From NCBI GenBank assembly GCA_000934665.2, contig JYFJ02002615.1, positions 1 to 54,028 on the forward strand: a stretch of 54,028 nt of DNA, given 5' to 3'. The notes below the pieces were generated by a model. It had not been told where the DNA came from. It did not search any database and was given only the letters and a program-made list of their open reading frames with translations. Position numbers and translations under genes: made by a program. Positions 1 to 52,646 of this stretch are shown one piece after another. Positions within the stretch are counted from its first letter, which is position 1. The number at the start of each line of letters is the position of its first letter. This DNA comes from Catajapyx aquilonaris. Lineage: Eukaryota.

Positions 1-201
1 CCACAGGTGGTAAGGCCTCTTTGGCTAGTTACACCAGAAAATTCTATTTAAATGTCAGAAGGAGCGATTAGGCAAAAATCGCTAAAGAGTGTATCTCCGT
101 AATGCGGCGGCCAAACATAATGATTCCTATACTTAAATCGATCCTCTGGTGGCTAGGAAGGCAGTCATATACGTCGGGGCACTGAGTTCAGATACACCCT
201 G
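1..201. mobile_element. One arm of a Tc1/mariner-type MITE, truncated by the window edge; same family as 48162-48586
   Basis: Ends ...cactgagttcagatacaccCTG followed by TA. Reverse-complementary to about 48162-48363. Confidence 0.85.
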
Positions 202-3200
202 TATATGCGAATGAGTTACACCAATAGTCGACCAAAGTTGGTTCTGAATAAACACCATATACTTATTGCAACGCGATCTGTGATTCAACACTGCTGCCGC
301 CTGATGCCACGTATTTTAAAATCCCTCCTCACCTTGTGCTACAGTTGCTGGGAACATCATTAGTGCCCATCTTGCGCCTGGATACTATACTTTCCAAATA
401 GAGTGGTTCGTTGGTATATCTCGTGATATCCCTGACTCTCCAGCCTATATTGGAAATAAGGAATGCTGACCATAACATTTGGACTATAATATCACCACAG
501 GCCCCTTCCGACTAGACAAATTTTTGTCTATTTTAAACCGTTTTTGCTATATCTCATGTAAACCTGTATATTACCAAGGTGAGTAAATATTTCTGAATTT
601 GGAACCGATATTATCTCACGGCTGACCTTCTGCATGTAATGATATGTCGTCTAATTGAAGGGGCCCGGCGTTCAATACCCCCGAACGCGGCCATGTTACG
701 CTTGAGAAGGTCGTCTGTTACAGGAGTGTAGTTGTGAAACGTGTAGCAAATTAAAGCTGGCTGGATATTTGATTGTTGCTTAATATTTCGTGTTAGGTTT
801 TAGATTTTTTCTCATGCAGAGAATGAGTCAGCATTTAGTGATACTCTTTGTGAGCAAAATGTTACGTGGGTTAGTAGGTTACCTACTCAACCTGCAAAAG
901 AAATATACGACATTTGAGTATACTTCATCACAAGGACATTTCTTTGAAATGAAGAGTATGTGTATTCACAAGCTGTAAGTTTACCCCACGTCTTCATAAA
1001 GTTCGACCATTCTTACATATGTGGTAAAGAGTTAGTGATAATTACACAAAATTAGTGCCGAGCACTTCTGGACGAATAGTGACGTAATGACGTGATAGTG
1101 CGATTAATCAGGACTGCCTTTCAGGGGAATAATTATTATATAGTCTTCCTATATACTTAGGACAGGTGTTAGGTTGTTGATTAAAGTAGAAAATCGTAGT
1201 GTCAACATCATCTGATTAATATCACTCCACAGTCGTACTCACTGTACTGGCCGCAGCTGTCGCGAGCTGATTGACAATCGAATAAGGATCTCACTTCGAC
1301 ACGTCCCGAAGCGCAAACTCTGTTAATAATATTGCACACAATGTATTACCACCAACTGCGAATGACCTCAGCTTCGAAACAAAGAATCAGATACTCCACG
1401 AAGTCACGATTTACTGGCATATGTCAATAGTTAATAATACGTGACATGTGACCGCAATCAGTTGCGTACTTGCGTAGATGCTGGGAGAATGGGAAGTTGG
1501 CAAGGACTCTTCAACTTTTTATAGCAAAATTGAATCAAGATAATTTGCTTGATTTTTAGAATCAAACTTTTCAGTACATGGCTGTGTCCATTTTAATATT
1601 GACGTACTACACATGCAGATGTGACAGGGGGACCTTGGATGTGGCTATTGTCATTGATCTGTAGATACTGCAGGTGTTAGTTACATGCTGATTAAGTGTA
1701 TGTGACCAATGAACTGTGATCACATTTTTGTTGTGTATATTATTTTCTTATTAATTTCTTAAGTACAGGAGAGATTATGAACGAGTAGTTGCCGTGAGAG
1801 GAAGACTGTCCACGTTAAGATAAGTTACACGTTTTATAAATTACAAGATTACGTGTTCGTTCCGTTCCAGATGGGGTCATAGTGTATGCGAATTTTTCGT
1901 GATGCACCATATCATGTTTCGCTTTTGGTTGGTGTTAGTGGTTATTATGTTGTGTTATCATTGCATTGAAGTGTTTGTCACGTATATCTAGGCTACAGTT
2001 TGAATTTTGATTAATTTCATCACCTGTTGTAATATGGAGGTGTATTGCTTCCAGTATACTCACAAAGAATGATTCAATTTCTCCCACCAAATGGAAGTGA
2101 GGGTGGGTAGATGGCGTTGGTGATGTGGACATTGTGGGCAAGGCCTGCTTGGCTGGCGGGCGATGCATAAATCCATTGGTGGCTAAAAAGGCGGGGTTTT
2201 GGAAGCCTAGAGGGTTGTGCTACCGGAGAGAGGGTGGGCTTTGGGACCTTTCGCACCCACACAGGTAGGCAGGGGGAGGCCTCACCTGGACTGAGAGGGG
2301 GGGCCCTCCCCTCCCACACTTCAGCTGCTACCCCATCCTTTTTTTTCCGATGGTACGGCCTACCTGTAAATGAGATGACACCACACCTTTCCTTCCACAA
2401 GGCCGAAAACAATAATTTTGGGATAAACATACTGGGGAGGTGTCATGCGTAGGGAAAAACACGGTGCTTTCCACAAGCGTAAATTCCGTAAACACACGGA
2501 AATGAAAACATCTTGTCTGAACTTTGCTCAGGAGCTATAATTTTACAGATGTATGAATAACGGGCTCAAACTGCAATGCACTTGTGGTTCGGGTAGGTGA
2601 CAACGTGGGAAAAGAGAGGACGTGTTATTATCCTGCCGCGGGAAGTAGGGTGGGTTGCCTACCTTCGCGGATGTACCTGGGAATCTGTGGGAATGATGAG
2701 TAGTACCGCATTCCGGTAGTGTATTTATAGAGAAAAGCAATATCATGTGCATACAAAACGGGATGTTTTACGCCCATTATCCTTTATTTGCGCCCATACC
2801 ATAGGTTTCCGTATCTTTAAATAGTAAATTCATCGTAGATGGAAACCAGGTGGGAAATTTTTTATCGAAGAGTCGAGGGAACAAGAGTGGTGAACCAAAT
2901 ACTGAACATGTGCCTTGACTGGCTGCAGTGCACCATAATGTGTATGCACACTTTTGGAGCTCTTAGCAATTTCTAGTAGGTTTCAGAGGGTAATTTCCAC
3001 ATATTTTGCAGTTATACGTAGGTCAGCTGTGTACGCGACTGTACAGAGGGCCTTTGAAGACTATCATAACCACTGCGGTACATTGCCAATATGTATATAG
3101 TGTGAATTTACAAGCATTCTAAACATGATACGAGTATCTGCAATAGTACAGATGGCACGAATATAGCCTTTGTTAGGAATAAAAACGATGAAGTGAGGCA

Positions 3201-4234
3201 TGCATTAGAAAGAGTTCAAGATACGCATGTTTTAGATTCGTAAGTATTTATTAATATACAAGGTGATGGTTTAGAAAGGAAGAACCACTGTTTACAAAAA
3301 TTCGGCGTATTTAGCTGACTTCCAGCAACCAAAAAAAAATTAGGTTGAGCTTACTTGTAGAATTTCCGAGTAATTGCTTACCTTCCTCTTGTTGGTCCGA
3401 AGAAAGCAATGGGCGACGGCTATTTGCTCCAATCCCTTATCTATCACATGGGTCAAAATTACGCCCTAATTCTGGCTTTGGGAGCACATTTCCGGAGCAA
3501 ATCGATATTTAGCCATGTAACGGGGTCATTACTGAGGCACACGGATGTTTTTGAAAGCCAAAATTTTAAGTCTGAAAACCCAGCAGGCATCAATGCCCTG
3601 TAGAGGGCGGTGGGACAGCTGTCTCGACGTGGTAAAAGATAGGAGTCCAAAAATTATGAGTATAGTGCAATTTCACATTATGCGTAAGGTGTCTTAGTCT
3701 GGGTTTTCCGATCTGAAAGGTTGGGTGCTAAAAACATCAATAATAATAATCAGTAATGACCCCCATTCGCTGGCCAAACATCGATTTAATATGGAAATGT
3801 GTTCCCATAAATGTAATTTTCACATGTATGATAGATACTGTATAGAAGTTAGATTGTTGGCCATTGATTTTTTTTCTTTTTCTAATATCTACAGTAAACT
3901 GTACTTTATGCCAAGCCTTTTCATGAATCACATATGACTTGCCAATTTGAAGTACGAGTAGAAGGCTGTGGTAGCGTTCATTTCACAGCGTGTTTACAAC
4001 GTGCAAGATCATGGTGTGTTGCCATTAGACTGGGAGGCCCGCTCTGAATGGTTAGAAAATTAAATAATTCCCATTACCGACAAACATGTATATTCATGCC
4101 TTATATGCCATTCCAGTTTTCTCCAATTTTGACGTATACAATATACTAACCTGAAAAAAACGGAGACTGACCATGCAGCAGTTCTTCATGCTCATATGTG
4201 TACCTTTACACTGTATGGCTGGTTTCGAGACTCC

Positions 4235-4357
4235 GTACTTTGCCCTATTTTCGAAAAACTGCACATCTGCACATAGCGGTAAGGTCGAGTTTTTAGGCAA
4301 CCCCCCTCAACACTCGAACTTACCGCTATGTGCCGAGGCATCTTTTTTCGAAAGTAC
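4235..4357. repeat. Imperfect inverted repeat (fold-back), probably a MITE remnant
   Basis: ttcgaaaaa..gcacatagcggtaaggtcgagt pairs with actcgaacttaccgctatgtgc..tttttcgaa around a ~20 nt spacer. Confidence 0.7.
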
Positions 4358-7176
4358 AGCAGTTAATGCATCTTTATGTGGAAGAATCCTTCAGAGCCTT
4401 TTCTTAGAAACAAACCGTTCCCTGGAAAGGGTTTTCGCATCGGGCCCTCACAGGGTTTCCAGTAACTCGAGATCCGTCAATGGAAAATCTTGTGTATAGC
4501 AAGAAGTCTTCGTAACATGAACACTTATTATTGAAGTTCGCGGAGGGGAATCCAATACTAACCGTGAGTTATTAATCAGAATGGAGCACACGGTGTAAAT
4601 TAATCCTGTTTTAAAATATAGAGGGGAGCGCATAGAATTTTGGCGATTAAATTGAAGACCTCTCGCATATATGGACCATCAAGGTAATTAAAGATCTAAG
4701 CAATCAGAATGGCCATCCTGGGTAACAGCTGTAATTATATAGTCCTTATAAATAAGGCTTTTGGACCGTTCAGGTGGCAAACCCTGCAATTGAGCTTAAG
4801 CTTGGGTATATCTGAAAGTGATCTAATCAGCTAGTCCGATAATATGGCTTTCAGTCAAGAAAAAATTGAGTGCTGCTACACGTCATTAAAAATGTGCCAT
4901 GGTTAAACTTCGTGAAGAGGACCAGTATTGGGAAAAGAGAAAGTGGTGCATGCAGTATAACTCCTCATAAGAGCCTGTAGTCATCACTTTTATTACATAT
5001 AATGTAATCTTGTGTATAGGACTAGGTATCGTGGTATATTGGAACTGTACTGAAAAAAAATATGTGTTGATGGTTTACAGTTAGATCTGATCTCTTTTAG
5101 CATATTTTCCTATACTATACACGTATACAGTGTATGTGATATAGTGTTTGCTGCCAATGCCTCCTCCATCTAATGCGGTCTACCGTCTACCTTGGCTTCC
5201 AACATATAGTCTGCCTTGGCTAATTAGTTTATTTGCCAACCACTGATAGTTTACCTGTGCATATTAATGGGCGGACCTAATTTCTTAATGATATACCAGA
5301 CTTACTCGTACTCTTGTTAATGCAATGAATGGAGCGCATGCATTTAAAACAATCGCAATCATGGGAAAATAGTCCGAATATTTTACATTCATTCCCAAGG
5401 AAGTAGGCGTAATTAGCCTGTTGTACACTTCAGTGCACACAGTAGTAAGTCATCATTTGGAATTTTTAATACCTTTCAAGTATAGCAATTACCAGATATC
5501 CTGACGCGATTTTGACCAGTGCCAAAAGCCAAAATTATAAAGCTGCAATTAAGGTGTGCAGAAGCATTGCGTAAGCACGATTTATTACCTTTCTTCATTT
5601 GCAGTAAAGAAGAAAAAAAAACACAATAGAAAGACAGGCAATTTGAAGCCCGTTGCCTTCACTCCACCGCGGTACCCATAAGACAACCGAATCTGTCCTT
5701 ACAACCACCTTCCATCTGTGCTACTCCCGTTCCCCCTAAGAAACCATACCTCCGAAATTGACAGGTTGGTCATTAGTTCCTCAAGAAGCTTAACCGCGGT
5801 CATGTGCAAAAGGACGTGCCATAAAAAGAAGGAGCTCCCGCTGTATAATTTCCAGGGCGGCATCTGGTAGCAAAATGGTACTACCTGACTGTCATATTTT
5901 TTTATTGTGGATCCACGTTTTTAATGTCATACTACAAAATTATTTTGAAGGCAGGAATATTAGATGGTTGGTGGCGGGGAGTGATCTCAGAAGCTGTCGC
6001 CACTGCCCATGAAAGCCACGAAAGTGAGCCAAATGACGCCGGCTCTCCTTTTTGATAATATGCTGTCAGAAAGGTGCGTCATGTGCTTCTCACGCGTTTC
6101 AGGCTTTGCGTATTGTGTCTTTCGTTTCTTGTGACTGGCAAAGAAATTCTGGAATTACACGGCAGGTGTGCTCATTTTCAAATGTGTTCACGATCTTATC
6201 ACGGCATATATGCCATTAATGTGCATTTCTGATTAATTTTTTCGTTTGAAGTTTAAATGATTGTCTGACTGCGGTTCTATACTGAAGCATCGATATTTTC
6301 TTAGAAATGAACAGTGATGCTCAACAGGCAGTAAAACTTCAAATGCAATTAAGCATGACATGAGTCGGAAACATGAGCTGGTCAGGAGTGTTAATTTTCT
6401 CAAAAAACAGGGTACCTGGCTACAGAGATGAGTGGTCAAGCATGGTAATGAGCCCCCCCCCCCTCCTTCCCCTTGATATTCCCTCCCGTCCCATGAAGAT
6501 GAGACGGCGGGGGATGTAAATTGGTGAGAAGCGCAAAGCAGGTGTTTTGCAGCTTTTGCCGGTAGATTTGTGGCGGTGGGGGGGGGGGGGTACCTTTTGT
6601 TTAGAAGCAAAGGAGTGTGTAAATTGGAAGTTCTCGTAGGTTTAATGAGGATCCGAGGTTGCCAACGTTCAATTCCGCCAAGTCACTTACTAAGAGGGGG
6701 GTATGAAGTGTGTTATTTTACCTCGGTACCTGGCGCTGGGATAATAATTGTCATCAAACTTGACTTATGGAGTAGGGTGGGTGGGAACTGGGAAGAAGAA
6801 GGGGGCAGGTCACAATTTTTTTTTCTGCGTAATTTGGTTCCAGCAGGCAGAGGGACAAATAATGATGATTGTGAAACGGGGAAGTCGGAAGGCGGGGACG
6901 TTATAGGGGGGTGGTAGATGGTAGGGGGGTACATAATACAGTCTAGTTGGCACAGGTGTTGTATTTGTGGAGGGCAGATTTTTTTTTCCTTTTCCTTTTT
7001 TTAACAGGGAGTGAAGGGGGTGGTCAAAATGGAGGGTACAAGAGACCTTTAGTACTCGGTTGGAACTTGCATGTTAGGGCTGTTCTGTGGACAGTGTGGG
7101 GGATAAGTCGATATTTGTGGCTTGTAATCGGTGACAAGGTGAACGTGGGAAATTCTACCATGGGTCTGTCGCGTTG

Positions 7177-7208
7177 CCTAACCTCATCCTCTGTTCTTTT
7201 CCATGCAC
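7177..7208 (+). other. Non-canonical 3' splice site: branch point CCTAAC, pyrimidine tract and terminal CAC
   Basis: Sequence gCCTAACctcatcctctgttcttttccatgCAC|gt with the candidate branch A at 7181 (-28). No AG dinucleotide occurs between 7139 and 7231. Confidence 0.8.
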
Positions 7209-7269
7209 GTCGTGTTCCTGTTCCTGACGCCAGATTCGACTACCTCTGCGAGTACTACAAGCCTGTGAG
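7209..7269 (+). CDS. OLA1: OLA1 (Obg-like ATPase 1 / YchF) internal coding exon, 61 nt, (S)RVPVPDARFDYLCEYYKPV(S)
   Basis: Translation matches the OLA1 segment [21 protein letters not shown]. The exon ends in AG|GTAAGT (donor 7270-7275), and the split codon AG+C=Ser joins the next exon in frame. The 5' boundary is placed by homology at ...CCATGCAC|GT CGT, a non-AG acceptor. Confidence 0.93.
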
Positions 7270-8457
7270 GTAAGTTGATAATTATTTTGTGAGGCTATAT
7301 GTCAGTGTTCCGAGTAACCAGGGAAAATGTCCATATATAATTTTCTAAGGTGTGCGCATAATGTATATGTACAGTAAATCCAGAATAGAAAGTGACACCT
7401 GGACGAGGTTATATAATGAGGGAGATTTGATAGCTAAAATGTGACAATTCTTTGTATTTATTAGAATATTGTTTGGCAATATAGAGATACTTGTATTTAT
7501 TTTCGATAATACCAAAAGCTATCTACCCTACTTAGTAATCTGCGATTGCTCAGCATGGACTACTTCATTTAACAGAACAGGATGCGCATTCATTATTTAT
7601 GAGATGATTATGTGATATGATCATTATAACACAGCATGATTGCAAAATGATCAGAGAAACGGAAGTTAAGCGTTATTTTTGCGCTTATCGCAGCGAATAA
7701 CCTTATTAGTAATTTAAAGAGCACATGCATGCAAATATTGAAGACCGAGTTAATACCGTCCGATTGAAGAGGACACGAGTGTAATTTGAGACAGGAAAGT
7801 CATGATTCGCGAAAAAATCTATTAGTACATTTTAAATGCCAGTAATCTGGTCTACTAACCAATGTGCACAAGTTGAGGCGGTTGCGGTAAAGGGTTTTAT
7901 ATGGTTTTATAACTATACTGCACTCTATACTATACCCACTCGGCTACGTGTTAATTTTAAGTTAAACTGCACTGCTAATTTGTTTGGCCTTAGGCTACGA
8001 AGGCCGATAGTTTGTCTAGTATATCTGCTAATTTCTACACTGCACTGGCGCCATAATGCAGAGGAGGATAGCGATTTACAAAACGAGATGTAGTTTTCCT
8101 CTGGAACTTTTCGTCAGTAACTCACACAGTGTCTTATATTGCCGACATTGTAAGAGATACTAAATTTTTTTAAATATTCCGAATGAATCGTGCGCAAGCA
8201 AATATTGTCCAGTTCAGGGACCAGGTATTGTACAATACTATTGATAACATGGGCTTATTATATAAGTTGTTATGCTTTAGGATAACTACAGAAGTCTACA
8301 CGAATTTGTTGCATTTCGCTTAGTTTAATGGGAGAAGCTAAGGGAACTGAGGCGATTAGGCGAATGTGTACTCTTGAGCCTTAAGGTAAGTACAGTAGAT
8401 CTGTAGATACATCATTATGTGTAGTTTTTAAAAATGTGCAGTTTTGAAAGATGTACG

Positions 8458-8851
8458 CATGGTGTATACGAATAAATCTGCCGTATGGTACGAGTGGTAG
8501 GCTATAGGGGGTGAGTATGGAAGAAGCATGGCATGAATTCGAAAGGTCGGCGACGATCCGTTTTGGAGATGTCGACGATGTCCATCGTGACAAGTGTGGA
8601 TACCCCCATACATGCGTGCATTGCTGGTTGCCGGAGTCAGGCGCTCGCACTACCAGACGGTTGCTCAACCCCCTGATCCGGGCAACCAGCGATGCAGGCA
8701 TGTATGGGGTTATCCACACTTGTCAGGTTCGACGTCGTCGCCGGCCTTTCGGACCCATGCAGTTCTTCTTCCGAGCACAGACCCTACCACTAATCAACCT
8801 TATATCCCTTATATCATTTTGGCAGATTTATTACAATTCGTATACACCCTG
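8458..8851. mobile_element. Fold-back MITE (~395 bp), same family as 52252-52646
   Basis: Ends catggtgtatacgaat ... attcgtatacaccCTG+TA. Internal arms pair (gaaaggtcggcgacga / tcgtcgccggcctttc). Long-range similarity to 52252-52646 (gacaagtgtgga.acccc, cattgctggttgccgg, ggcaaccagcgatgcagg). Confidence 0.85.
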
Positions 8852-17800: not shown

Positions 17801-19085
17801 CCGAAGTCGGGCAAATCACAGAGCTTGTGTCGCAGCCTCTGCAATTAGACGCCTGAAGCAGGGACTGTAATTTGCCTCGCCCTGGATATACCCCCCCAAA
17901 AACTACCTGCCGGACCCAATGGCTTCTGATAAAAACCGCTTTTTGCTGGTACACCCCTACAACCCTTCCATTCCGCCCCCACAGATTCCCCCTTGAAAAC
18001 ACTAAAACACCCAACATCAAATTACAGCCAACTTTTTGAGAGTTAAAAGGGGTAAGGTGGACGTCGGAATCTCAACGAGGAGTACAAAAAAGCATAATGG
18101 TAATATGAGTTTAAAAAAAATAGAATTGGGGAGAAAATGGGTATGAAACAATGATTATGGTCATCTGTTTCGAGTTGAAGCTCCCCAAGCACTGTTTTGG
18201 TCCCTTGAAATAACTGACCAGGAAGGTGCAAGTGTTTCATAGGATATTACTTTGCCCGGATAAGGAACTATGTTAATAAATTATAAATATTCTCAATTTG
18301 TTTGATGGGCAGGGTGTATAATTTTCTTTTGAATTTGTGCCTCGTTAGGTTTTTGCAGAAAAAAATTAAAGTTATGATCCAATATTTAGCCTTTTTTATT
18401 AGAGTATCTTCTTGCAGACCTACAACTATATATACAGACTTACTATCGATCACATTTAAAAAATACGTAACAGGAAAGGGATAATGAAAGCTCTGTTGTA
18501 ACTCGAAGCCAACCAATGTGAAGGTCTGGAAAAAGGTACCATTTAGTTATAACTTTATAAACACAGTGGTTTCATGTGCGGCATATACACAAAGACACCG
18601 CTCATGAATAAGGCATCGAATCTTTGCCATGTCATCGTCTACGTCCTTTATTAGTCACATGTAGGTCTAATGCTTTTTACCTGCCCGAATGCGGATCATA
18701 CTGCCTCGGGATTCTCCAATTTGGCGACAACATATTGTAAATTCCCCCATGATACCCCTTGTCAGAGATTGATTCGCCTATTATTGTACAGTATACAAAT
18801 TATATATCATATATTATTAATATCCAGATGAGAAATCGTCCATGCTCACTTGGCAAAGAACCACTACTTACTACTTCGGGATTAAGTGATATTTTAATGA
18901 ATATAATTTCTGGTATAACTTTATAGTCCACCCTTTCATGAAAATGTATCATTTGAATGCATTGTATTGGACTGACAGGTGGATGTTGCCAGAATATTTG
19001 AGCTACTCTGTATAGGGATTCTTGACACGACGGCATATGCGCGACATTGTGCTACAGTCGGGATGTACAGTACGTACTGTATCAA

Positions 19086-19218
19086 CAGTGCAAAAAGAAC
19101 TGTCCCAGTCATCCTGACGTGTGGGCTGGCCGCTCGACACACACCATGTAACTTACATGGTGTGTGTCGAGCGGGCAGCACACACATCAGGATGACTGGG
19201 ACAATTCTTTTTGAACTG
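19086..19218. repeat. Near-perfect 133 bp palindrome with a 1-nt centre at 19152
   Basis: caaaaagaactgtcccagtcatcctga...ccgctcgacacacaccatgtaa-C-ttacatggtgtgtgtcgagcgg...tcaggatgactgggacaattctttttg. Confidence 0.9.
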
Positions 19219-20799
19219 ATGAGTACATAGCAAGGCGATATTTGTACAGGTATATAAATTGTCAGACTATTTTCATTGGATCAAGATGTACTTGTATGAG
19301 GCATGCGGGATACTTTAATTTTATGGTACCATCAGTAATAATGATACAATGTCTCTCTGACCAGAGTTGTATACTGGTTGTTTCTTCAACGTTCAAAGGT
19401 ACTCATTCCAAAGTAATTTGAGTAGCTTCCTCGATTTATAAATATCAGTGGCATAATTCACGCTAGTCACACTTTAGACATTACTGGACATTTAGTTGAC
19501 TCATACACCATTATGTACAGTAGCCTACCTGCTATAACATACGTACACACAAGCAGACATTTCCAGCAGTGTAGAAGTTGTGAATAATTACTCCAACAAC
19601 CACTGTAAAGCGAAACAACAATCACGACAAGTTAGTATGGACCCCAGCATTGTTACTTTTAATGTTTATTTCCCTCTGTGAACTAGTTGTTGGTTGTTGG
19701 GCTATACAATTGAGGATAGGCTACTTGGGACTTGTGCAACACCAGCACGTATCATATTGTTAACTTGTAATTTGTGACAGTTATGCACGATGTAGAGACC
19801 CAGTAGTAAGATTTACAGTCTATTATTTATTTTGTTTACTTCGTTTCATATACCTGCGATGAAGAGAGGGAGTATTGTCTGTAGTATAGGTAAAATTTCT
19901 AGTTTGTTATACAGTATATACTCGTACACTATACTGAAAAAAACTGTAACTGAAAATCAGGCAACTATATACTAATTTTTTATTTTACTTACTTATTTTG
20001 CATAATGTACTTGTGCCACAAAAGTTTTACTGATCCAAGATCGTCTACAAATTTTCCACACTTTTGGATCGAATCTTCTACAGGAAGTTACCCATTTTCA
20101 AAGGCCTTGGCTTCTCCAGGAGTAGCAGCAGCAGTCATCCACCTTGTCCTCCTCCTGTTTGGTCTTCTTCCCTCTAACAGAAGGGAAATTAACATATTGT
20201 GCATGTATATTTTCTCCCCTCTATTCTCCACTAGATTGCCGCGTTTCAGAATTTTTTTTACTATACAATGAAAAAAGAACTTGGTAATCTTTTCCATCTA
20301 TAAGCGGATAATAACGCACTTTGCGTTTATATACTCTGTTATCGCAGCATGATGCGAAGACGCCCATGCCATTTTGTCTACAATATATATTGCTGGGCCG
20401 CAATGATATTGAAATCCTGCACTTATTTGAATAATAATTGCTTTTGGCAATCGATTGATTTTCTTATTACAAGAAGGAATTTGTGTAGGTTGCACGAATG
20501 ATCACTCTTATAAGACTAATGTGAGCTTGATTCATAGCATCAGAGACTATCAACTGCAATAATGGTATTATCAAGAACGCCATCATGAACATGCCTCTTT
20601 GCATTACTTAACATGAAAGGGAATGTACCATGGACGTGATTTTTTTTGTACAAATTACGACGTATAAAAATGCGTTTCGCGCTGGATTCAATTATCCTTA
20701 TTAAAACCCTGGATATTAATACAGAAAAAATGAAGCCCGCCCTGTTGACACAAGGCCGGTGAGAATGGTTAGCATTGCTTTGGTAGCTGCGATTACTAA

Positions 20800-24630: not shown

Positions 24631-24654
24631 CCCCCCCCCNCCCCCCCCCCCCCC
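24631..24654 (+). repeat. Poly-C tract containing an N (assembly ambiguity or gap)
   Basis: cccccccccNcccccccccccccc. Confidence 0.95.
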
Positions 24655-27414
24655 GCCCTACTATACCAAAACTTGTCATAACTTCCTGCGGGCAAAATTG
24701 ATTTATTCCGGAGGATCACGAGGGGAGTGGCTCCTTATCTGCGCCATTTTCGTGCATAAAGGGAGCCGGTGATTGAGGCCGATCCACGCCTAATCTGCTT
24801 ATGCTTAAGTGCAATTTGTGATTAGCAGGGAGCGAGAGAGATTGAGAGTTGAGTTTTTTTGGGGGGGCTAGAAACATGCATCGTGGCGGAGGAATCGATG
24901 GGGTTGTACGACTTGGGGTGTTGTAAGGAGTGGGAATGAAGCATATGACATGTATGACTAGGAGGCATAATTTATGAGTGAATGTGAGGGGAGAACAAGT
25001 GCCTGGTATGTTGTACGAGTGCAATCGGCTGTTGTTGTTATCCGGCTTTTTGATCTTGTCTGTGCACTGAGACGCCGGCTGTTTACTCGAGTGTGCAAAT
25101 ATCTATGCAATTTTGATGTGCTCCTTTTTTGGTAGCGATTTTCGTGTGTACGTGAGGGAACTGAGTAAACTGGGAACACCTTTTCGTCGTTGCTACCACC
25201 TGATTGGCCGATTTTTTGTTTTGGGATTATTACCCGTGACCGGGCAGTGAACATTTCCATTGATGGAGTTCACAGAATGGAACATGGCTTAGTTTTGTCA
25301 CTGGCGATGTTAATTGCAGATTGCTACACTTCGCGCATTACAGCCGCAAAAATAATACATGCAGGCTATAGTGTAGGGGTCTGAAATGTCTGGAACCTAA
25401 ACGTTCTCCGACTAATGCGAAATTTACATCATCAATTGGGAAGTCAGTAGCAAAATAATTCCTGATATGCTTGGCAACCGATATTCCGCGCTGGTTTTCA
25501 ATCAAGCTGAAAAGCTGAAGGAGAGGTCAGATTAACGGATCTCTGCTGTTGATCGCGATAATTATGCTGTAAATTTTTTACAGAAACATGCTACACCGTC
25601 TGAGAAAGTTCGTGAATGTACTTGGTCGACACATGGATCAAATATTGTGAACAACAGTACATGGGAACACATTTTGTGCTGCCATATGTGGGGCATTTCC
25701 AAATGATTGTGGACTTGGGAACATCCTCCCAAATAATATGAGCTTATTATGGCTGTAACTTCTGTACACTAATTATTAATTTGTGGAAATTTAGTTCATA
25801 AATATTTTGAAAACCTCTCATTTGTAATTAATATTGAGGGGCGAGATAATCAGGAAAATATTCCTTCATTTTCGTGTTTGATGTGAAACTGTATGATCAT
25901 CAAAGATACTGTAATAAGAAAAGAAAAAAAAACAAGACAGTCTGAAATACAATGCTGCTTACTGCATGTCAACATGTAATACGTAATCGCACCGTGTATG
26001 ATTTGGACTCATTTACATTCGCCAGCATATTACACGTTTATGCTTATGTTGGTCAATATTCGATAAAGGTATACAGTATGGTGTCCCAGTGAAGTAAATG
26101 ATAAAATACTGTGCTACACTTATTCACATCTCACATGTTATAAAACGAAGCAATTAAACAAAAGTACTATAACATATATTTAAGCGTCAAAACTTCACAA
26201 TGTGGTAATGAAATTGCAATTTTCATAATGTTACACACTTGCACCTATTAAGAGTTTTAAGAAAGCTGTGTCACTAGAATTTTGTCTTTATTGCAGCGGA
26301 TGTGCCATTCTTTTTGCGCCATTACCTACATTCGAGGGTCATGCATTTAATGTGACCTTACCTTTTAGAATAGGATAATTACCGTGCATTTATGAATGAG
26401 TAACACTAAATTGATGCCAGATTGGATATGTGACTATTTCTGATGCTGCACCATTTCTGTCTCCATAACTTAGAAAATAATATTGTGAACCGGTAATTTG
26501 ACGCAAATTTCATGATATATTTATTTAATGGTTGCAAGCATGTAAAATTATGAAGGCTTTAATTTTATTCCCATAATCGGCGATATGTGAAGATCTGGGA
26601 AGTGTGCCTATTACATTTGTATAATAGAAAGTGACGTTTTAAGACATTAAATTTTTGTAAATCAGTGGTAAGGGGAATGACAAGAAATTATCTTGTCAAG
26701 TTTGTGATGAAATTACCAACAACTTGTTTCCGCACTAAAAGCAAATATTTACGCCTATTTAAAAAAGGCCACCCAGAATTTTCCCAAGCCAAAATATGCA
26801 CAATTATCAAAACTTACGAATTTGTGCCGAATTGCTATTAATTATATATTTTTCTCGAGCAGCCACCTGGTATGTTGCATAGGAAATTAAAATTTGAATT
26901 TTGTAACTAACAATTTTGGTCCTTTGGCCAACATCACGGAAGCGCACATTAGCAGTGACAATGGATGGTGTCAATAGCCCCCCTATTCCGGCACATACAG
27001 TAGCCTACTTGTCCATGGCTAGTGCATTTCAAGCAAAAATCCTGTACTTGAAAGAGACTATAGGAAAACACTTTATAAGCACGAATGTCTTCGACAAATC
27101 CATCACCATTGTCAATGAATTAATTCAGAGGACAAGAATAATTTATAGCAGACGTGATCGTGCTGGTTTCCACTGGGCAACCACGAACTTGGGAGCGGAA
27201 AACTGCGGTTTAGGTCGGTAACCGCACCTGGGGAATAGCTTTCACGGATCGGATCCTCTGGACAATAGGAATACGGATGTGTTGAACCCCTGCAGTGTCG
27301 AACATGTATAGGATGTATAGGCTTTTAGGAATATAACACTTACGCAATATTTTGGTACTTGTGTTGTGGTTATAGTGAGTTGTTTTTAATTGTTGCCTTC
27401 CTGTTTCTTTCCAG

Positions 27415-27542
27415 CAAGGTGCCTGCTTTCTTGAGTGTGGTTGACATCGCAGGGTTGGTGAAAGGAGCATCAGAAGGCCAAGGACTGGGAAACGCTTTTC
27501 TTTCCCACATCAAAGGCTGTGACTCCTTGTTCCACGTATGCC
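27415..27542 (+). CDS. OLA1: OLA1 internal coding exon, 128 nt, [42 protein letters not shown](R)
   Basis: Contains the YchF/OLA1 G3 signature [20 protein letters not shown]. Acceptor ccttcctgtttctttccAG| and donor C|GTAAGT. Phase 2 in and phase 1 out are consistent with the flanking exons. Confidence 0.98.
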
Positions 27543-30745: not shown

Positions 30746-31541
30746 GCCCTCTACCTTCTTACATGAAGAATATAGGCCTAAGGTAGATGATGGCAGTGGT
30801 GGATTCGGTAGCTGAGCAGACCCGCTGAGCTGTATTAAGGGCCTGACTTCTCACCTGGATGGGGGAGGAGGAAAAATGAGGGAAATAAATGAGTTGGTCC
30901 CGACCCCTGGGATGGGCCTCCCCCTCCTCTTCTCCTCCCCGTCCACTCCCATTCACCCCCTTTTATTATTCATTCTTCTGCGATGGGATTAACTCCACCA
31001 AGTCCTTCAATCGTATGATGGCGTTTTTTTTTTATAGGAGGGAAGTACACGAGACCACCCGCAGATTGTTTCGTTTTTGATGGAGATTGTTACGTGACAG
31101 GTAACATTTCAGGTGTATTGCGTAGTCACTTTGTAATAGGACTGGGCGTGTCCCGTGATTACTGGACGGAATGACTGTGCCACATGTGTAACTTGCAATG
31201 GCATTGAACAACAATGATGGTCATATGGGCGTAATGACAACGGCACATTGAGCGTCTGGTTTCTTGTAGTTGTAGTAGTTGGTCAAAGGAATATGATTAT
31301 TATTAAGAATTAGGAGTGATTTGCTTCGTAAAAACAATAATGGTGGTAGAACTGTGTGGAATACCAAGGACGGCATAGATATCTTGGGTTGTAAACATAG
31401 GCAATAACCGGTGTTGATGCTGCAATGGTATCTGACTGATATATTATTGCAGAATAAGTTCCAAATGTATGGAGTTCATGCTATATCCCTCATTATACAC
31501 ATGCTACATTTATTCACTGGATGTGCAAATCTGGAGATATA

Positions 31542-31772
31542 CAGGGTGTTCCATATTCGTGGGTCACTTTTTGATAACTGATATCGCCCAATAGCAGTTA
31601 TTTTTTGTAGCTTATTGTGCCCCTATAACCACGTGTAGCACCCCCAGTGGGTCGAATATAGAAGCAGTTATAGAATGGGGCACATGGTTAGTGGCACAGC
31701 AAGCTACAACAAATAACTGCAATCGGTCGATATCAGTTATCAAAAAGTGACCCACGAATCTGGAACACCCTG
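31542..31772. mobile_element. Fold-back MITE, 231 bp, TA TSD, CAGGGTGTTCCA termini
   Basis: TA-cagggtgttccatattcgtgggtcactttttgataactgatatcg ... cgatatcagttatcaaaaagtgacccacgaatctggaacaccctg-TA. Confidence 0.92.
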
Positions 31773-34700
31773 TATTAATAAACTTGTGTATATTTATGAT
31801 GCACAGCCAGTCGCTGATTTACTTAAGTGGATCATTTCGCAATATTACCCGTCAGGTACGTCGAATTTTACGTAACATTGCCGGACATGTCCAACTGTTT
31901 ACAATATGCAATGGTGTAGTGTAACCTTACACGCCTCGTACATCGATACTGTGGAGTCACTGTCCTATTCAATTGAAGCCGTTACGAGCGGGAAAGGGTT
32001 CCCCGCGATGCCCAGAAGCGGGTTGCAAATGTTTGTCACGTGTAAATTAAGTGAGGGAATGGGCCTAAAATAAATATCTGTTTCCTTTCCACCAAGCTAT
32101 TATCGGTACAGTCGCATTTGGATACTAAATTGTGAACAATGGCTTATTGCAGTGTTATAGGTTTCAAGAAATTGTCTTCAGCATGTGCTAGACGTACCGG
32201 AAAGATATCAGTAAACAGCCATGGAAATGTACCATCATGTTGCATTTTGTATTGGATAGAAGGGGTGGAATTTTTATTCCGGTCTTGCCTCAAAGAACAA
32301 AAGCTTATGCACGCTTAGGATGCTTTGCAGTTTGAAAGGAGTAGGCGTTACCCGCCAACCAGTTTGGGTTCGTGGAAAGAAGCCGTATGGTAAGCGTTCG
32401 TGTACTGTAATTTGTGTTGCATTGCACGGTGGTATGCCAGGGATGCTTAATTCTTCTTCAGCGGCAATTTGTCATTCACTTAAGCTGTATATAGTGTCAC
32501 TTTTGATTTTGTTAGTGTGTTGACGAATGTATCGCCGTTGTACTAAGGGCACGAGTAGCATAGAGCCTATACTTGCAATACATTCGAAACTTGCAGGCCA
32601 TGTCATAAGAAGGGAAGCATGTTATTAATTTATAGGCCTATTCAGCATATGTGCACATGTGTGATAGATTTGAAATGTACACCACTTCTTGTGTCCCGAG
32701 AGTCAGCGTAAATATGTACTGTTTTAAAATCCCGCAGATGTTGACCTCATGTTTTTTGCATGTGTGCGATAGGAGATATTGTGACTTATGAGATAATTTT
32801 TTTACCGTTCTGAGACAATACTGTAATAATAAAAATCCAGCACAGGTGCTAAGACTCGTCGCTGTTATATGGCCGTATACGTTCTTCTTATAGAAAGGCC
32901 GCTGTTATTATATAAGGAGCAGTTGGCGTTTGAGCCGTGATTGCTATAAGCAGTGAATACCAAGCCAGGAGCGTATGTTATAAGATTAAGTATGAACATG
33001 TTACTCTTAGGTCTATTGCATTAATGATAACGAGAATTTTGTCATAATAGTTTTTTTTTTTTTTCAAACCCGCCGTTTGGGCTGAATTTGTTTAGAGATG
33101 GCGCTGGCGGCTCCTCTTCAGACATTCACCAAAATGGAAAAGGGAGCAGTTACTTTGTTTCTTACACAGAAATGGACAAACACCATCTAAGTGCTGTACT
33201 GGAGAATACATGCGTGTATGTATAATTGTATATGCTTACGACTGGTGTAAAAAATTCCAGGTGCCATAGCTCTATATTCTACTGGCAAGGCTGTGGTCGC
33301 TTCATATGATCCTACCTCGTAAATAAAGGCTCGAACTGTCATTTTTTGAACAGCATATATTTTTTGCACACGCAGGCATTACGATTTATATCAGATTCAA
33401 TGACAATCGGGTGTATGCCATTTTAAATTGCCTTTTCATTTAGGTAATCATATCCCGCACCCTTACTATTTCCAGTTCAGTCTGAGTAAAACCTACTCTT
33501 ATATGCTGGTTGGCAATTTACGATGGAGTTGAACTTATTGGTGCAGGCGGTTATAGAATCGTATAGAAAAAATCACCTCCGAATTCAATCTGGGAATTCA
33601 GAATTTTTAAATGTTTAGCTGATGTCATGAATCCCAAACAGTTGAAGTTTGACGGGGAAGCTATCAATTTACAGAACGATTTGGAATAAAATGCATGAGT
33701 TTAAACTGTCTTGTCGGCACTTGCTCTTCAATCGCGTATGTATGGAGAAGACAATTGTTTCGCATTTTCCAGCATTCTATGCATATTGAACTACTAAACA
33801 ACGTACAGGTACATAATTAATGATCGTAATAATGGCAAATCATGGTCATTTTGGCTTGATGAAAACAGTCGTGAAGCCTGTTCAATTGCGTGTCATGCTG
33901 CTTAAAGGATTACAGTTTATCTATAAGATCCTATGCTAGGTATTCTCCACATTTGGTACAGTCTCTACACAGAGTATAAACAGACTTATTCAACGGTGCT
34001 AAACATTCATAGAATGAAATACATGAGGCCGTTTGTGCTGTGCGGATCGTCGATGAACGCCCGTGAACGCCCGTGTGAGAATCTTGACTTCTCAGATATT
34101 TTGATCAACCTGAACAGCTAGGCCTGTATTTTTACGGACCGACATGTGCTGAGCAGTATAATCAATTGTCTGCGTACCTGTTTAAGTTCGGTTTGGATGT
34201 GCTGCGAGGCGGACGTGATCTGCGAGAAAAACAAAAGCCGGCTGATGGGGTTAGCGTAGTGGTCGTAGTGGTCGGTGGGTCTCGGAGGCGTAATTTCTAC
34301 TGCACGGCCAGAAAGGCTCAGACACCCGCACTTTCATTCCCGACACTTTCCCCTTTCCAAGCAGATGATGTATACACACCCGCAGGGTTTTTTTTTTCTG
34401 TTCGACCCTGAGCATTTCAGTCAGGGTATCATGCGACCTGAACACCCAATTTTTTTTACCCCCCGGAAGTCTGCAGTTAATATCGAATTTAATGGATCCT
34501 GTAGTTAGGCCGAGTTCCTTTTGTGTTATTGATCATTATTGTGGTTCGCTGTATTTTCGGCATATAAAATGTGTTCATTTAGGTTTTATATTGCATTTTT
34601 TATAAGAACGACTATTGTACTACTATATGATAAAACTCCATTTTCACGAAAACGGCCAGGAAGTCAAAGGCTATAGTTTTTCAAAGGACTGGGACATAAA

Positions 34701-46004: not shown

Positions 46005-48161
46005 TAATTCAGTCGAGATTATTTCTTAATTATTATTCTATCTGTCAGTCTGTCGTAATATACTGTGGTATATATAGTGAAGTTTCATGTAACATGCAGA
46101 CTCAGCAGGGAGGACGGTTACCATTCTATAGTAAATATTCACAATACCCGACATGTATAGCTAACATGTAAAGTGAACAAAGGCATGGGGGATCACAGCT
46201 GCTTGGTAAGAAAGAGCGATAACACTCAAATTCGGTGCCCATTACGTTCCTTACCGGAAGAAGGAGAAAATAATAGCCAATTTTGTGCCTGATGAATTTA
46301 AGGCGGCACACACATTAGTTCATGGGGTACCCATCTGCCTTAAGAACACTCGTGAAATGTGGTGAATGAAATTGTAGCATGTTAAGTATTGTTTCGCTGT
46401 GGATAATAGTAGTCAATAATGCACCTATATTGCGGCCCATGTGGTTTTGGATATGTGCAGCATACGTGGTTTGGGGGGTGGAATAATCAGAAGGATGGCC
46501 CTCTTATTATCCCTGGCTACGACGCAACGGGGATATACGATATCGCATCAATAAATACAAACTCTTGACTCTTGTATATTCCATTGTTGTTGGCATGTAT
46601 ATCATTGTAGTCGATTGTTTGGTAAACAGATGATAAGACCACCCAAACTTTAAATACATTTGCCTATTTACGCATAATGCTTCAATGTCCCTGTCAAAAA
46701 ATGAGCAACACTACCTCAGTTAACCATATTCCCTATTTACAAATCAGTAACTGCAATCTAAATAATTGCCTTTAGACTCGTACACGAATAGCCTTCTGAT
46801 CATGGAAATTGCTCAAATCAAAACCCATATAAATTCACAGAAATTACGTGACTTCGCATCACAGCTTTTCCCTAAAACGAGCTGCCTGCGATAACGGCAT
46901 TGCTTCCTCGTTAACTCATGCGACCGTACATCAAATCTGCAACACTGGTCAGCAGGTGCTACCAGAATAGAAATAATATATATGTAAGTTACATAATAAC
47001 CTTATTAAGAATTGAAGGGTTTGGTGGAAACAGTGTAAGTCCAGCACTTTTGTTACTTTCGAGAAAACGAATAAAAGTTGAATTCCCGGAATATTTCAAA
47101 AATGTTTATAATGACAATTTTTTGTTGAATAGGATGATACCAAAGTCAACATGCACCAGAATATTAAGTTTGTGCGATGCACATTACACATTCTACAGTA
47201 GAGTATAATGTGAACAAGTCTTGCTTTTGCACCGAATGAGAATCAAACATGTCCAAATAAATTATTTTTGTGTGTATGTTATGAGCATGGACAATCTTTT
47301 TTCTCCATTATAGGCATACATAGTGTTACAAACTCATCACTTAATTCATCATCAGATATTCAGGCTCCTCATCACTCTGTTTAGCCATACTGCAGCTCTT
47401 TAGTGACTTATACTAATGTGGCATTCCACGTCAATTGTAGGACCACTTTTCCGACAAATATTTTTCGATTTCGACCAAAATTCATGGGTTTGTAGTAGTC
47501 GTCGTTGTATGTAAAGAACCGACATTTCGTCTCTCTGTGACACGTGGTTGCGAAACTACAGGGTGTATAATTGCGATTTTTCACTCATTTGATGCGGTCA
47601 GGGCTTGTAATGGAGGCCCGTAACCTCTGAACCCCTCAAGTGAATCCAAATCTGATACGTGATTTTGGAAGCTCTTTTAAAGGCCTTTAATAATATCGCA
47701 TTGAAAATAGCCGAGATAAAATCTTTCAATTGCAGGATGGCGGCGAAATTTCGATCTTAATATAACTCAAAGTTCGCTACTTTTGGGATTTTTTTAAATA
47801 TACTTTGCAAAGATAAAACTGCTTTGGGTTACAAATCTTTTTTAAACACGTAAATGTGTATGGTCTGGTGGGTATTGCAGAAAACAACCTGCATTAGGCC
47901 TATGCCAAACAGAGGTGTCTATTACATTTTGTGTCGGAATAAGCGTGCTTAAAAATGGAATTAAACTGCTCTAAGATGTCGGAGAGAATGTTAACATCGG
48001 TTCACAGTCGTAAAGGCATCACATCAGTACCGGTATTCTATTCGAGGTCATTGTCACATTAAAAACTCGACAATATGGAATCATTCATTGCAATGTTAGT
48101 CTTCGCATTCAGGGACTTCAGGAACTTGACTGACAGTGTGAGAGATGTTTGGATGAATATA

Positions 48162-48586
48162 CAGGGTGTATCTGAACTCAGTGCCCCGACGTATATGACT
48201 GTCTTCCTAGCCACCAGAGGATCAACTTATGTAGAGGAGTCATTATGTCTGGGCAGCCTCATTACTGAGGTACACTCTTTAGCGATTTTTGCCTAATCGC
48301 TCCTTGTGACTTATAAATATAATTTTCTGGCGTAACTAGCCAAAGAGGCCTTACCACCTGTGGGCAACAAACCAACAAAGTCCCGCCCCCAGACCTTCCA
48401 GAGCCTTCTGACTGGGGGAGAGTTCGATGGGTGGCCTAACCGACAGGATATTTTGTACTACATGTTTGCGGCCAATTATCTCCGTAATGCGGCGGCCAAA
48501 CATAATGACTCCTATACTTAAATCTATCCTCTGGTGGCTTGGAAGGCAGTCATATACGTCGGGACACTGAGTTCAGATACACCCTG
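48162..48586. mobile_element. Complete Tc1/mariner-type MITE, 425 bp, TA TSD, ~110 bp inverted arms
   Basis: TA-cagggtgtatctgaactcagtg.cccgacgtatatgactg ... cagtcatatacgtcgggacactgagttcagatacaccctg-TA. A second copy lies at 1-201. Confidence 0.93.
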
Positions 48587-51116
48587 TATACACTATTCGT
48601 GATATGCTGATATCCAATGTAACATTTTCTTCAATGCACCTGGACTTGACCGACGGAATCACTGGATATTTCTGACGTGTAGAAGCAAAAGCCTTTACTT
48701 CCGGGAAAATTACTACGAGTGTGATGTTTACTGCTCCGACAAACCTGTGGACACAGCAAGATGCAAAACACCACATTCAGTGCTCACAATCAGAATCAGG
48801 AAAATTTATTGTACTATATTATAAATTGTGCTGGTTGGTATTTAAATGTGTTTCAGTATATTGACTCGCCCCATGCTGCCATCCACATTACAAGTTGTGT
48901 AAATTGGATAAATATACAACAAAAGCCGCTTGCTCTCGGTGTGCAGCCAATTTACAGACATTCTTTACTGTAAACTATAAAGGGTTTCTTCAATTTTCGA
49001 TTGTTGCCATACCAATGCGGTACACTATTCTGGCACATTACAATATCGACAACGCCATCGTGTCCGAAAGATTTAGGCGAGAGAGATACGCAGTGTATTG
49101 CAGGAGTAAAGGTGCAATGTGGGTTGCTAGACTCAAAGGGGCATCTTTATTGCGTCGTCAACAATAGAGGCCCTGCACCTAACATTCAGTGTATGTCAGG
49201 TGTGTCAGGTAAGGGAAGCGACTGAGGGATGAATGCCCGAGTAATAAGATACACCTTGCATACATCTAGGCGCGGCGTGGTGTATACAATCATGGTGTCA
49301 TTAATGTGTGAAGTTGTTTTTTTCTTGTATATAGTTGGGTTTGGCATATAATTACTGTATAGGTAGAGTTAATATCAAAAGGAACTAGAGCGTTTCCTTG
49401 TGCAATAAGAATGTGTCAGTACGTTAAAGGTCATTCTACTTGGAAGTCAAGCCCCATTGGAAGTATATGCACAAATAATAAATGACAATAAGCAGAGAGT
49501 TGCTGGAATGGCCGTGGCATTAGGGCTATAGAGGGAAACTCTGTCAGCTGAGACCACTTCGTGAGGAAAATGGGTGGATAGGAACGAATAAGTCGCCTAG
49601 AATAACCGAGCTGCAATTGGCCGATGGGCATGTTGGGTCTTTATGGATTTGTACCACCTGACCTTCCAAGCACCAACTGTCGCCTTTCCCTTCCCCCTAC
49701 CTCCCCTTTGTACAGTTTTTGCCAAACCACGCCCACTTAATATACTGCTGTATAACCCCCCACGTCCACACTACCGGGTAAATATTACATGCGGTGGACG
49801 CAAACAGGTCGAAAAGTATTATGCATTATTATGTTAATTGCTCGCACATTTCCTGGCGAAATTCTCGGACAATGCAATTAAGTCATCGGCGTGGAAAGAC
49901 TACAATTATTTGCATTGTGGCAGCCATGCTTTGTTCATCAGCGCGAGGTGAGAAAATTTCACGTAATTTAGGTAGGCGGTATAGGCATCTGCCTAAAATA
50001 CAAATGAGAATGGGTGGAAGAAAGTGGTCGGAAATTAGAGAGTAGGATATCCGTCACAATGAAGCGAGATGCTCTTTATACTTCACTTATTTCCCACTTA
50101 TCTGGCCTGATAGTAATAGGGTTCGTCGGAATGCTGCCATGCTGGTCAAGTAAAGTTTATACATGCTATACCAGATGCAATGATGTTGCGTAATTCAACC
50201 ATCATATTGGTTGGGAATGCAGGATGTGCCACACGCAGTTGTTTTTTGTCCCAGGTATATATTAGAGGGCCGTATAGTTCAAGTACAAACATTTATTATC
50301 GGAAATCAACGGTAATAATTTTACGTAGGGCATGAGAAAAAAAGTGGTGAAGAATTTGAGAGGGTAAGAAATAGGTAGGGGGCTTATGGGTCTGCATGAG
50401 GTTCGGCGTCACACACAACCTTTGAAAGCGGATTCCGCCATCATGATGGATGATTCCGTTGCATGATCCGCCCGCTTCCATTCTGATTGTTTTTCGTGTC
50501 CAGCCCTGAGATAAGTGGCCCCGAGGAACTCTGACAGCCCTCCCCAAATGATAGATAGAGAGATAGATGTAGCCAAGGCGTCCTATGGGGTGGCCAGACT
50601 CGAAATGGGTAGCCTATGCCGGCTGGTCCGGAAAAATCAAGGGGTAAAAACATAGCCATTTGGGGCCGCGTGTGATATGGCCAAGTTATGGGCATTGTCA
50701 GGACCACAGCCGTATCTCCCCATGTTGGGAGGGGCTTCAGATCGACCTCCTACTCCTTCCCTTTCCCTTTTCCACTGAACGTTCTGTCAGTTATCATGTC
50801 GGGTCAACCTCCAAAAATGTGTATTCTGTGTTTGTATAGATTATGTATGTCATTTTGATGGAGAATGAACAAAGCGGATAAGTGCCACTCCAGAACTTTT
50901 ATTTATCAGTTAAAAATAAAAAAGCAATTTTGTGATATTACATGGTATCAGTATAAGAGGAGAAAAACGTCGCGTTATCACCACCAACTCTAGGCTTTTA
51001 ATGTAAATGACTGTTATTAAAGTCTTGCCATTTTTCTGTTATTTAATTAAGTGTGCACTTAATTTCCAATGCAAATACTGATCATGGCCCATGTTTGTTC
51101 TTTCAATGAATTTCAG

Positions 51117-51292
51117 GGGGTTTCGACGACGACGATGTGACTCATGTGGAAGGGGAGGTGAATCCGGTGCGAGATCTCGATATCATATGCGAGGAACTTC
51201 GGCTGAAGGATCTGGAATATCTGCTAGCCCAGATGGACAAGCTAGAGAGGGGCGTTTTGCGAGGAGGTGACAAGAAGATGAAACCGGAATTT
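51117..51292 (+). CDS. OLA1: OLA1 internal coding exon, 176 nt, (R)[58 protein letters not shown]
   Basis: Matches OLA1 [32 protein letters not shown]...RGGDKKLKPEY. Acceptor tttcAG| and donor TTT|GTAAGT (phase 0). C+GG=Arg joins the previous exon in frame. Not present in the ORF track. Confidence 0.98.
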
Positions 51293-52251: not shown

Positions 52252-52646
52252 CAGTGTGGTCACGAATTAGTCTGCCAAAATGATACGGGTGGTATGGGGA
52301 TGCGTATGGTAAAGGCATGGCATGGGCCTGAAAGGCCGGCGACGCTACGTCTAGGTATCTATATAGGAGATGTCGACCTTTGACATCGAGAATGTCCATC
52401 CTGACAAGTGTGGACACCCCCGTGCATGCCTCCATTGCTGGTTGCCGGTTCCAGGCGATCGCAGCACGTCTACACAATTGCCTGACCCCGGCAACCAGCG
52501 ATGCAGGGATGCACGGAGGTATCTATACTTGTCAGGATGGACATCGTTGACGTCAACGTCGTCACCGGCCTTTCGGGCCCATACTCATTCGATGCTCACC
52601 CGCTACCATCCGTATCATTTTGGCAGACGAATTAGTGACCACCCTG
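52252..52646. mobile_element. Fold-back MITE, 395 bp, TA TSD; same family as 8458-8851
   Basis: TA-cagtgtggtcacgaattagtctgccaaaatgatacgg ... ccgtatcattttggcagacgaattagtgaccaccctg-TA. Confidence 0.9.

Follow-up and report, generated by a model that had tools for sequence, protein, structure and literature searches.

The window analysed here, the 54,028 nucleotides of contig JYFJ02002615.1 of Catajapyx aquilonaris (NCBI GenBank assembly GCA_000934665.2, forward strand), carries three internal exons of the OLA1 gene (Obg-like ATPase 1, YchF family; a housekeeping GTPase) of an arthropod-like animal, separated by introns of 20 kb and more. The mRNA of this gene joins an upstream exon ending in ...GAGA to GTCGTG at position 7209, directly after the genomic letters CAC. 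We consider it very probable, at roughly 0.85, that the intron ending at 7208 is a U2-type AT-AC intron ("AT-AC II"), which would be removed by the major spliceosome, and that it is orthologous to an intron of the Drosophila gene CG1354. It adds one more species to a rare class that is already known, and already annotated for OLA1 in Drosophila. What is modestly new, within the reach of the searches made, is its apparent occurrence in arthropods, an echinoderm and a non-animal eukaryote alike, together with the large-scale derailment of gene prediction that goes with it.

The acceptor at 7208 and its spliced form

The three exons were located by tblastn with five arthropod/echinoderm OLA1 proteins. 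They lie on the + strand, cover residues ~61-182 and match arthropod OLA1 as conserved sequence in order, with 64-81% identity. Their matches carry PF01926 and PF06071, and a search with the third exon returned 325 relatives, the best named of which are arthropods; with a top identity of 81%, this species is not itself among them. No upstream OLA1 exon was found in 1-7208 by tblastn with the same five proteins, and the upstream-exon letters of the spliced contig described below have no match in the window at up to three mismatches. Because these letters are absent from the window, the intron ending at 7208 is longer than 7208 nt, as an earlier reading made from the letters alone (the sequence-only reading) had estimated.

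Five sequencing runs, all from one organism, were found with the third exon and its flanks as query. Four of them are DNA-like and derive from one sample, possibly the source of the assembly itself, while the fifth, X5, belongs to a different sample and a different study; its kind is unrecorded ("?"), and no run is on record as RNA. X5 was chosen because it held half of the query words, that is, the share belonging to the exon only. Within the region 6600-7900, one X5 contig (record 4, 1415 nt, depth 24.8) fits exactly 7209-7269, with loose ends on both sides. Its 3′ overhang, CAAGGTGCCTGCTTTCTTGAGTGTGGTTGA, equals window positions 27415-27444 in 30/30 letters and nowhere else in the window, and since this is the next OLA1 exon, the contig represents the spliced form. 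The 5′ overhang, ...TTCCCTTCTGCACCATCGATCCTACTGAGA, translates as F-P-F-C-T-I-D-P-T-E followed by one A; the upstream exon accordingly ends in ...ATCGATCCTACTGAGA (also written ...GATCCTACTGAGA), that is, T-I-D-P-T-E plus A, where TIDPNE plus A had been predicted. The serine codon at the junction is made up of this A and the GT that opens the exon at 7209. A shift of the acceptor to the left is excluded, because immediately before the junction the contig has A where the genome has C; with a shift to the right the intron would end in CG, GT, TC and the like, at no point in AG.

The genomic side was read in DNA contigs from three of the other runs (X1, X2, and X4), which span 6600-7900 at a word depth of 21-27 and have C at 7208. 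An intron end of AC is thereby obtained from the window, the spliced contig and the DNA contigs of three runs. We also noticed that one letter of the 61-nt exon is different in the X5 contig from that in the window, and that the sole difference of the X1, X2, and X4 contigs from the window in this region is 7819 C>T in X1; both are probably polymorphisms.

A close examination of the acceptor shows CAC at 7206-7208, with the exon reading GT CGT GTT CCT GTT CCT GAC from 7209 onward. The nearest AG dinucleotides are at 7137-7138 and 7232-7233, with none in 7139-7231. This 95-nt AG-to-AG gap is among the 20 longest of 3051 in the window, and 5.25 AG would be expected in 93 nt. Pyrimidines occupy 18/22 positions from −25 to −4 before the AC, as compared with 19/22 at the AG acceptor at 27414. 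The pentamer CTAAC at 7178-7182 places A7181 at −28 as the putative branch point and fits the metazoan yUnAy branch consensus; a yUnAy match 18-40 nt from the 3′ end followed by a pyrimidine tract, the hallmark by which we recognised a U2-type 3′ side, is present here. The sequence-only reading had put the exon start after CAC, had noted the AG-free stretch between its two flanking AG and the CTAAC at −28 with a long pyrimidine tract, and had named G at 7208 or use of an AG acceptor as outcomes that would overturn it. The exon start and the architecture stand as described, 7208 is C in three runs, and the avoidance of AG acceptors holds in one spliced contig.

The orthologous intron in gene models and genomic loci

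Gene models that read on from the first coding part of OLA1 into the intron give a view of its donor. Short proteins of 33-105 aa containing the first 60 OLA1 residues numbered 531, of which 120 were listed. After DPNE, 101 of the 120 continue with N-K-Y (an intron starting AT, or AC, AAR TAY) and seven with other N-K (AT, or AC, AAR), giving 108/120 with A|AT (or A|AC) then AAR. Five have S-K or S-E, which corresponds to a donor starting with G, five have S-R-V, S-R or N-R-V and are either spliced or without the intron, two have R.. and fall into none of these groups, and N-I-L/P, which ATATCC would give, occurs in none. Twelve of the listed models are organism-named, and 11 of these are N-K, from ten insects (Pieris, Papilio, Tribolium, Holotrichia, Cryptolaemus, Trichogramma, Odynerus, Heterotrigona, Ooceraea, and Hermetia) and the crab Portunus; the twelfth, from Anopheles dirus, is contiguous and has no intron. 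The conservation in arthropods that the sequence-only reading had thought possible is thus visible in the named models, and the U2-like continuation of the donor that it had anticipated is found in the orthologues. Apart from +1, these donors agree with the U2 consensus, as ATAARTAY in 101/120 listed models and as ATACGT in the non-animal locus L076 described below, never as ATATCC. The donor in this genome lies outside the window; from these relatives we infer that it is /ATAAGTAY-like, that is, a U1/U6-binding 5′ splice site with A for G at +1.

Two individual models are instructive. That of Cotesia typhae (P0178) translates the whole intron, DPNE-NKYQLRVKDFFFLLFYFFLTFYIYLA-R-RVPVPD, which is 78 nt long, starts AT AAR TAY, becomes T-rich toward its end and finishes ..GCN C. 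The Polyplax model (P0005) reads DPNE-NN-KVPAFL, which fits a predictor that took GT at +5/+6 and skipped the 61-nt exon (4 − 61 = −57, in frame).

The acceptor can be read in the same manner from models entering the exon out of the intron. The context before RVPVPD is aberrant in 16 gene models, and in nine of them R stands directly in front of this motif, equivalent to C|GY (Zophobas, Acanthoscelides, Lucilia, Pogonomyrmex, Melipona, Apis florea, two Cotesia species, and the sea cucumber Apostichopus); one of the 16 has G, as an AG end would give. A mink model (P0221) without the 15 residues just before the junction was set aside on account of other odd substitutions.

Genomic loci were surveyed in metagenomes, the queries being the first 124 residues of ten OLA1 proteins from arthropods. 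Of the 459 relatives obtained, the best-covered 80 were kept, a choice by which intron-bearing loci were mostly dropped. Both flanking motifs are present in 17 of these best 80 loci, contiguous in 16 and interrupted in one, L076, by an intron at exactly this codon. The L076 intron (3170-3315, 146 nt) reads ...AACGAAA|ATACGTATCT...CGTCGCCTCAC|GTCGCGTCGAGGTGCCC, ending in CGCCTCAC before GTCGCG, with termini /ATACGT...CAC/. As the three other OLA1 introns of this locus are GTACGC..CAG, GTGAGT..TAG and GTACGT..CAG, ATACGT is the normal donor of this organism with G1 changed to A. Neither ATATCC nor TCCTTAAC occurs in the intron. Removal of all four introns leaves an open frame of 391 codons plus a stop, and a GT-AG reading of the AT-AC intron (GT at +5, AG inside the next exon) was rejected because it breaks the frame. 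In a 26-row tree, whose other 25 rows are proteins hand-picked for taxonomic spread, the 11 animal rows form a clade (support 100/100) that does not include L076, which is placed among unnamed protist-like rows. L076 belongs to a GC-rich, non-animal eukaryote with introns of 76-146 nt, and the exon downstream of its AT-AC intron is 362 nt. A second locus, L010:342-585, is a genomic contig of arthropod-like character, with 84% identity to the OLA1 of a millipede. It is without the AT-AC intron (...GAGAGCAGGGTG...) and keeps the next intron at the same place as window 7269|7270 (CTCAG|GTGACA), which looks like an intron loss.

The AT-AC intron breaks automatic OLA1 gene models on a large scale. 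At least 108 clusters in the protein collection are OLA1 "proteins" of 62-105 aa that consist of the first exon read into the intron. The breakage was noted in the set of stored proteins P0229-P0348, P0045, P0104, P0128, P0150, P0152, P0176, P0178, and P0195; OLA1 models of 345-349 aa start inside the AT-AC intron, and chimeric adenylate-kinase-9/OLA1 (AK9-OLA1) models are seen in bees and a bethylid wasp.

Other features of the window

The coordinates are collected in the table below. The intron between the second and third exons is 23,574 nt long and has an AG acceptor.

Features of the OLA1 region in the window (positions on the forward strand)
Feature	Position	Strand	Basis or remark
Probable AT-AC intron, 3′ part	1..7208	+	Donor and upstream exon beyond window start
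AG-free zone over branch site, pyrimidine tract, AC acceptor and first 23 nt of exon	7139..7231	+	AG positions
Putative U2-type branch site CTAAC, branch A 7181 (−28)	7178..7182	+	Sequence reading
Polypyrimidine tract	7183..7205	+	Pyrimidine count
Terminal AC of intron (3′ splice site)	7207..7208	+	X5 spliced contig; X1, X2, X4 DNA contigs
OLA1 coding exon, 61 nt, (S)RVPVPDARFDYLCEYYKPV(S), phase 1 at both ends	7209..7269	+	X5 contig, tblastn
GTAAGT donor of next, ordinary intron	7270..7275	+	Sequence reading
Next intron, ordinary, 20,145 nt	7270-27414	+	X5 3′ overhang = 27415-27444
Next OLA1 exon, 128 nt, AG acceptor, GTAAGT donor	27415..27542	+	tblastn, X5 overhang
Third OLA1 exon, 176 nt, CAG acceptor, GTAAGT donor	51117..51292	+	tblastn

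A stop-free frame of 108 codons (6947-7273, +) runs into the 61-nt exon, and its NVGNST resembles the P-loop NVGKST of the missing upstream exon. The open frame at 6947-7208 was considered as a decayed copy of that exon and rejected, as 45-118 of 500 shuffles reach its alignment score. Short dispersed and inverted repeats of 78-96% identity and two palindromic stretches (1-206 vs 48157-48363 and 48477-48590; 8572-8738 vs 52386-52547; 19078-19227; 31539-31775) occur in the introns and are probably transposon remnants. The sole ambiguous base of the window is a single N at 24640, in a G/C homopolymer-rich stretch. When the window is divided into 27 bins of 2 kb, 24 of them show a positive GC skew (cumulative +2.1), and the AT skew is mostly slightly negative. 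The sense strand of the long introns is thus richer in G + T, the pattern expected of transcription-associated strand asymmetry. Rfam gave no matches in the window.

Alternative readings and known AT-AC introns

The intron of CG1354, the fly OLA1 orthologue, is listed among the FlyBase exceptional gene models at X:9779242-9780241 as a coding AT-AC intron of 1000 nt, typed "U2", with junction FBsf0000130271 and no similar alternative splice (Crosby et al. 2015, PMC4528330, File S4), in agreement with what the sequence-only reading had said of it. Four U2 AT-AC introns are given there (Taf2, CG1354, CG4433, and CG10750; PMC4528330, File S4), out of 13 AT-AC introns of which the text counts nine as U12 (PMC4528330). 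In the text sections of Sheth et al. (2006, PMC1557818), AT-AC II introns are those that have AT-AC ends and a donor which, with A at +1, fits the U2 matrix; 15 are counted in human, six in mouse and three in fly, conservation is pointed out for TAF2, and OLA1 is not named. With four annotated in fly (PMC4528330) and 15 in human (PMC1557818) by these texts, such introns are very rare. Among main texts, no paper was found in which OLA1 occurs together with U12-type, minor intron or AT-AC, or CG1354 together with AT-AC, and among the matches listed for CG1354 and intron, by title and start of abstract, none deals with this splice. Three supplementary files of Parada 2014 (file 1 not among them) contain neither OLA1 nor the control TAF2 and are uninformative.

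Several points weigh against assigning the intron to AT-AC II. The junction is carried by one spliced contig, from one run of unrecorded kind; contigs drop rare variants, which makes minor alternative acceptors possible; and the three DNA runs, being one sample and possibly the source of the assembly, are not independent. The AT and its U2-type continuation are taken from orthologues, most of whose 120 listed clusters are unnamed and related to each other. They were also read at the protein level, where K stands for AAA or AAG and N for AAT or AAC. The position of the CG1354 intron at the same codon is deduced from "LR|RVPVPD" in Lucilia and "NKY" in Hermetia. Finally, TTGCCTAAC agrees with the U12 branch consensus, TTCCTTAAC, in 7/9 letters.

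TTGCCTAAC would be the branch site if the intron were of the U12 type and spliced by the minor spliceosome, lying unusually far from the acceptor at −28. AT-AC termini are indeed mostly U12-type (nine against four in the fly count; PMC4528330), the donor of this genome is outside the window, and the best branch-motif match in −45..−5, TGCCTAAC with its A at −28, equals 6/8 of TCCTTAAC. However, 575 of 5000 random 41-nt windows reach 6/8, and within −28..−5 the best match is 5/8. According to the text of PMC3584512, U12 introns have no pyrimidine tract and an optimum of 11-13 nt between branch and 3′ end, whereas the tract here is clear and no TCCTTAAC branch site stands 10-20 nt from the 3′ end. 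The conserved U12 donor is /ATATCCTT (or /GTATCCTT); ATATCC would show as the N-I-L/P seen in 0/120 listed orthologue models, and L076 has no such donor. FlyBase types CG1354 as U2, and OLA1 does not appear in the minor-intron tables for human and mouse (eight supplementary files of the 2019 catalogue of minor-intron genes), which do contain the control TAF2. We therefore regard a U12-type intron as very unlikely. A combination of the AC acceptor with a donor other than AT (GT-AC or another odd pair), or an origin of the X5 contig in a retrocopy or paralogue, seems about as improbable. Such a reading draws on the position of the donor outside the window, on the G-start donors in 5/120 listed clusters, and on the single exon letter in 61 and the unrecorded kind that set X5 apart. 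Against it, GT-AC is disfavoured in a passage written of U12-type introns (PMC3584512), FlyBase annotates no GT-AC introns (PMC4528330, Table 3), and lineages with a G-start donor should have changed the acceptor too; the X5 overhang is the next exon of the same locus, and a retrocopy would record the same splice anyway. As single letters can be wrong in an assembly and the DNA runs may have been its source, there is room for an artefact in which 7208 is really G, by assembly or sequencing error or as a private variant, and the intron an ordinary AG one. This we consider practically negligible, since the three runs, re-assembled by Logan, agree on C, since even with AG at 7207-7208 a donor other than GT would be required to fit the A at +1 of the orthologues, and since nine independent gene models from other species point to C at the final position of the intron, with CAC in L076.

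The sequence-only reading had further proposed that the A..C requirement is an adaptation that keeps the 61-nt, frame-shifting exon from being skipped among giant introns, or else a rate-limiting regulatory step. Ligation of an AT donor to AG acceptors farther downstream should be inefficient, judging from the single-end mutants in the text of PMC1557818, loss of the exon shifts the frame, and the flanking introns measure >7.2 kb and 20.1 kb. Yet the same AT-AC intron is tiny elsewhere (78 nt in Cotesia typhae, 146 nt in L076, 1000 nt in D. melanogaster), the exon that follows it in L076 is several times as long as the one here, and other lineages have lost the intron (L010, Anopheles dirus) or carry a G-start donor; the proposal is thus left unsupported, and we think it unlikely.

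In a U2-type AT-AC intron, established splicing knowledge would have the U1 and U2 small nuclear ribonucleoproteins and U2AF recognise donor, branch site and tract just as they do in other major introns, and at the second step the A at +1 would need C as the last base, in place of the usual pairing of first and last G. In line with this, a G1>A change is rescued by G>C at the last base in yeast and human (text of PMC1557818). The AT-AC state would be old and would persist through a two-hit barrier between AT-AC and GT-AG, because a change at a single end leaves an AT-AG or GT-AC intron that is spliced poorly. This barrier can be crossed, as seen from the G-start donors in five of the 120 listed clusters and from the missing intron in Anopheles dirus and L010. 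We tentatively suggest, at somewhat less than even odds, that the OLA1 intron is among the oldest U2-type AT-AC introns known and predates animals, its codon, phase and A..C ends being the same in arthropods, an echinoderm and L076; it may be a relic of an early-eukaryote U12-type AT-AC intron that drifted to the major spliceosome with its ends kept. If this were true, the natural G-start revertants and the losses within arthropods would provide a natural system, already at hand, in which to study the persistence and conversion of AT-AC II introns. For splicing evolution, the OLA1 case offers a conserved AT-AC II intron, a transcript-confirmed member of an orthologous series apparently running through arthropods and beyond, and no new kind of mechanism.

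Among known systems, the closest is the CG1354 intron itself, which shares the gene family, the AT-AC termini and the coding location, with the same codon position in its dipteran relatives Lucilia and Hermetia; it differs in length (1000 nt in fly vs >7208 nt here), and its position is the deduced one. U12-type AT-AC introns have the same terminal dinucleotides and likewise old, conserved positions, and differ in that here TCCTTAAC is missing at 10-20 nt, the pyrimidine tract is clear and the orthologue donors are not ATATCC. U2-dependent AT-AC introns (AT-AC II) were reportedly described by Wu and Krainer in 1997, in SCN4A/SCN5A and others. The text of Sheth et al. (PMC1557818) gives SCN4A and SCN5A as the only ones for which dependence on the major spliceosome is shown by experiment, whereas for OLA1 it is deduced from sequence. 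With these introns and that of TAF2, the OLA1 intron shares an AC 3′ end preceded by an ordinary pyrimidine tract and, in its orthologues, donors that are the U2 consensus with G1 replaced by A, and, like the TAF2 intron, it is conserved between distant species.

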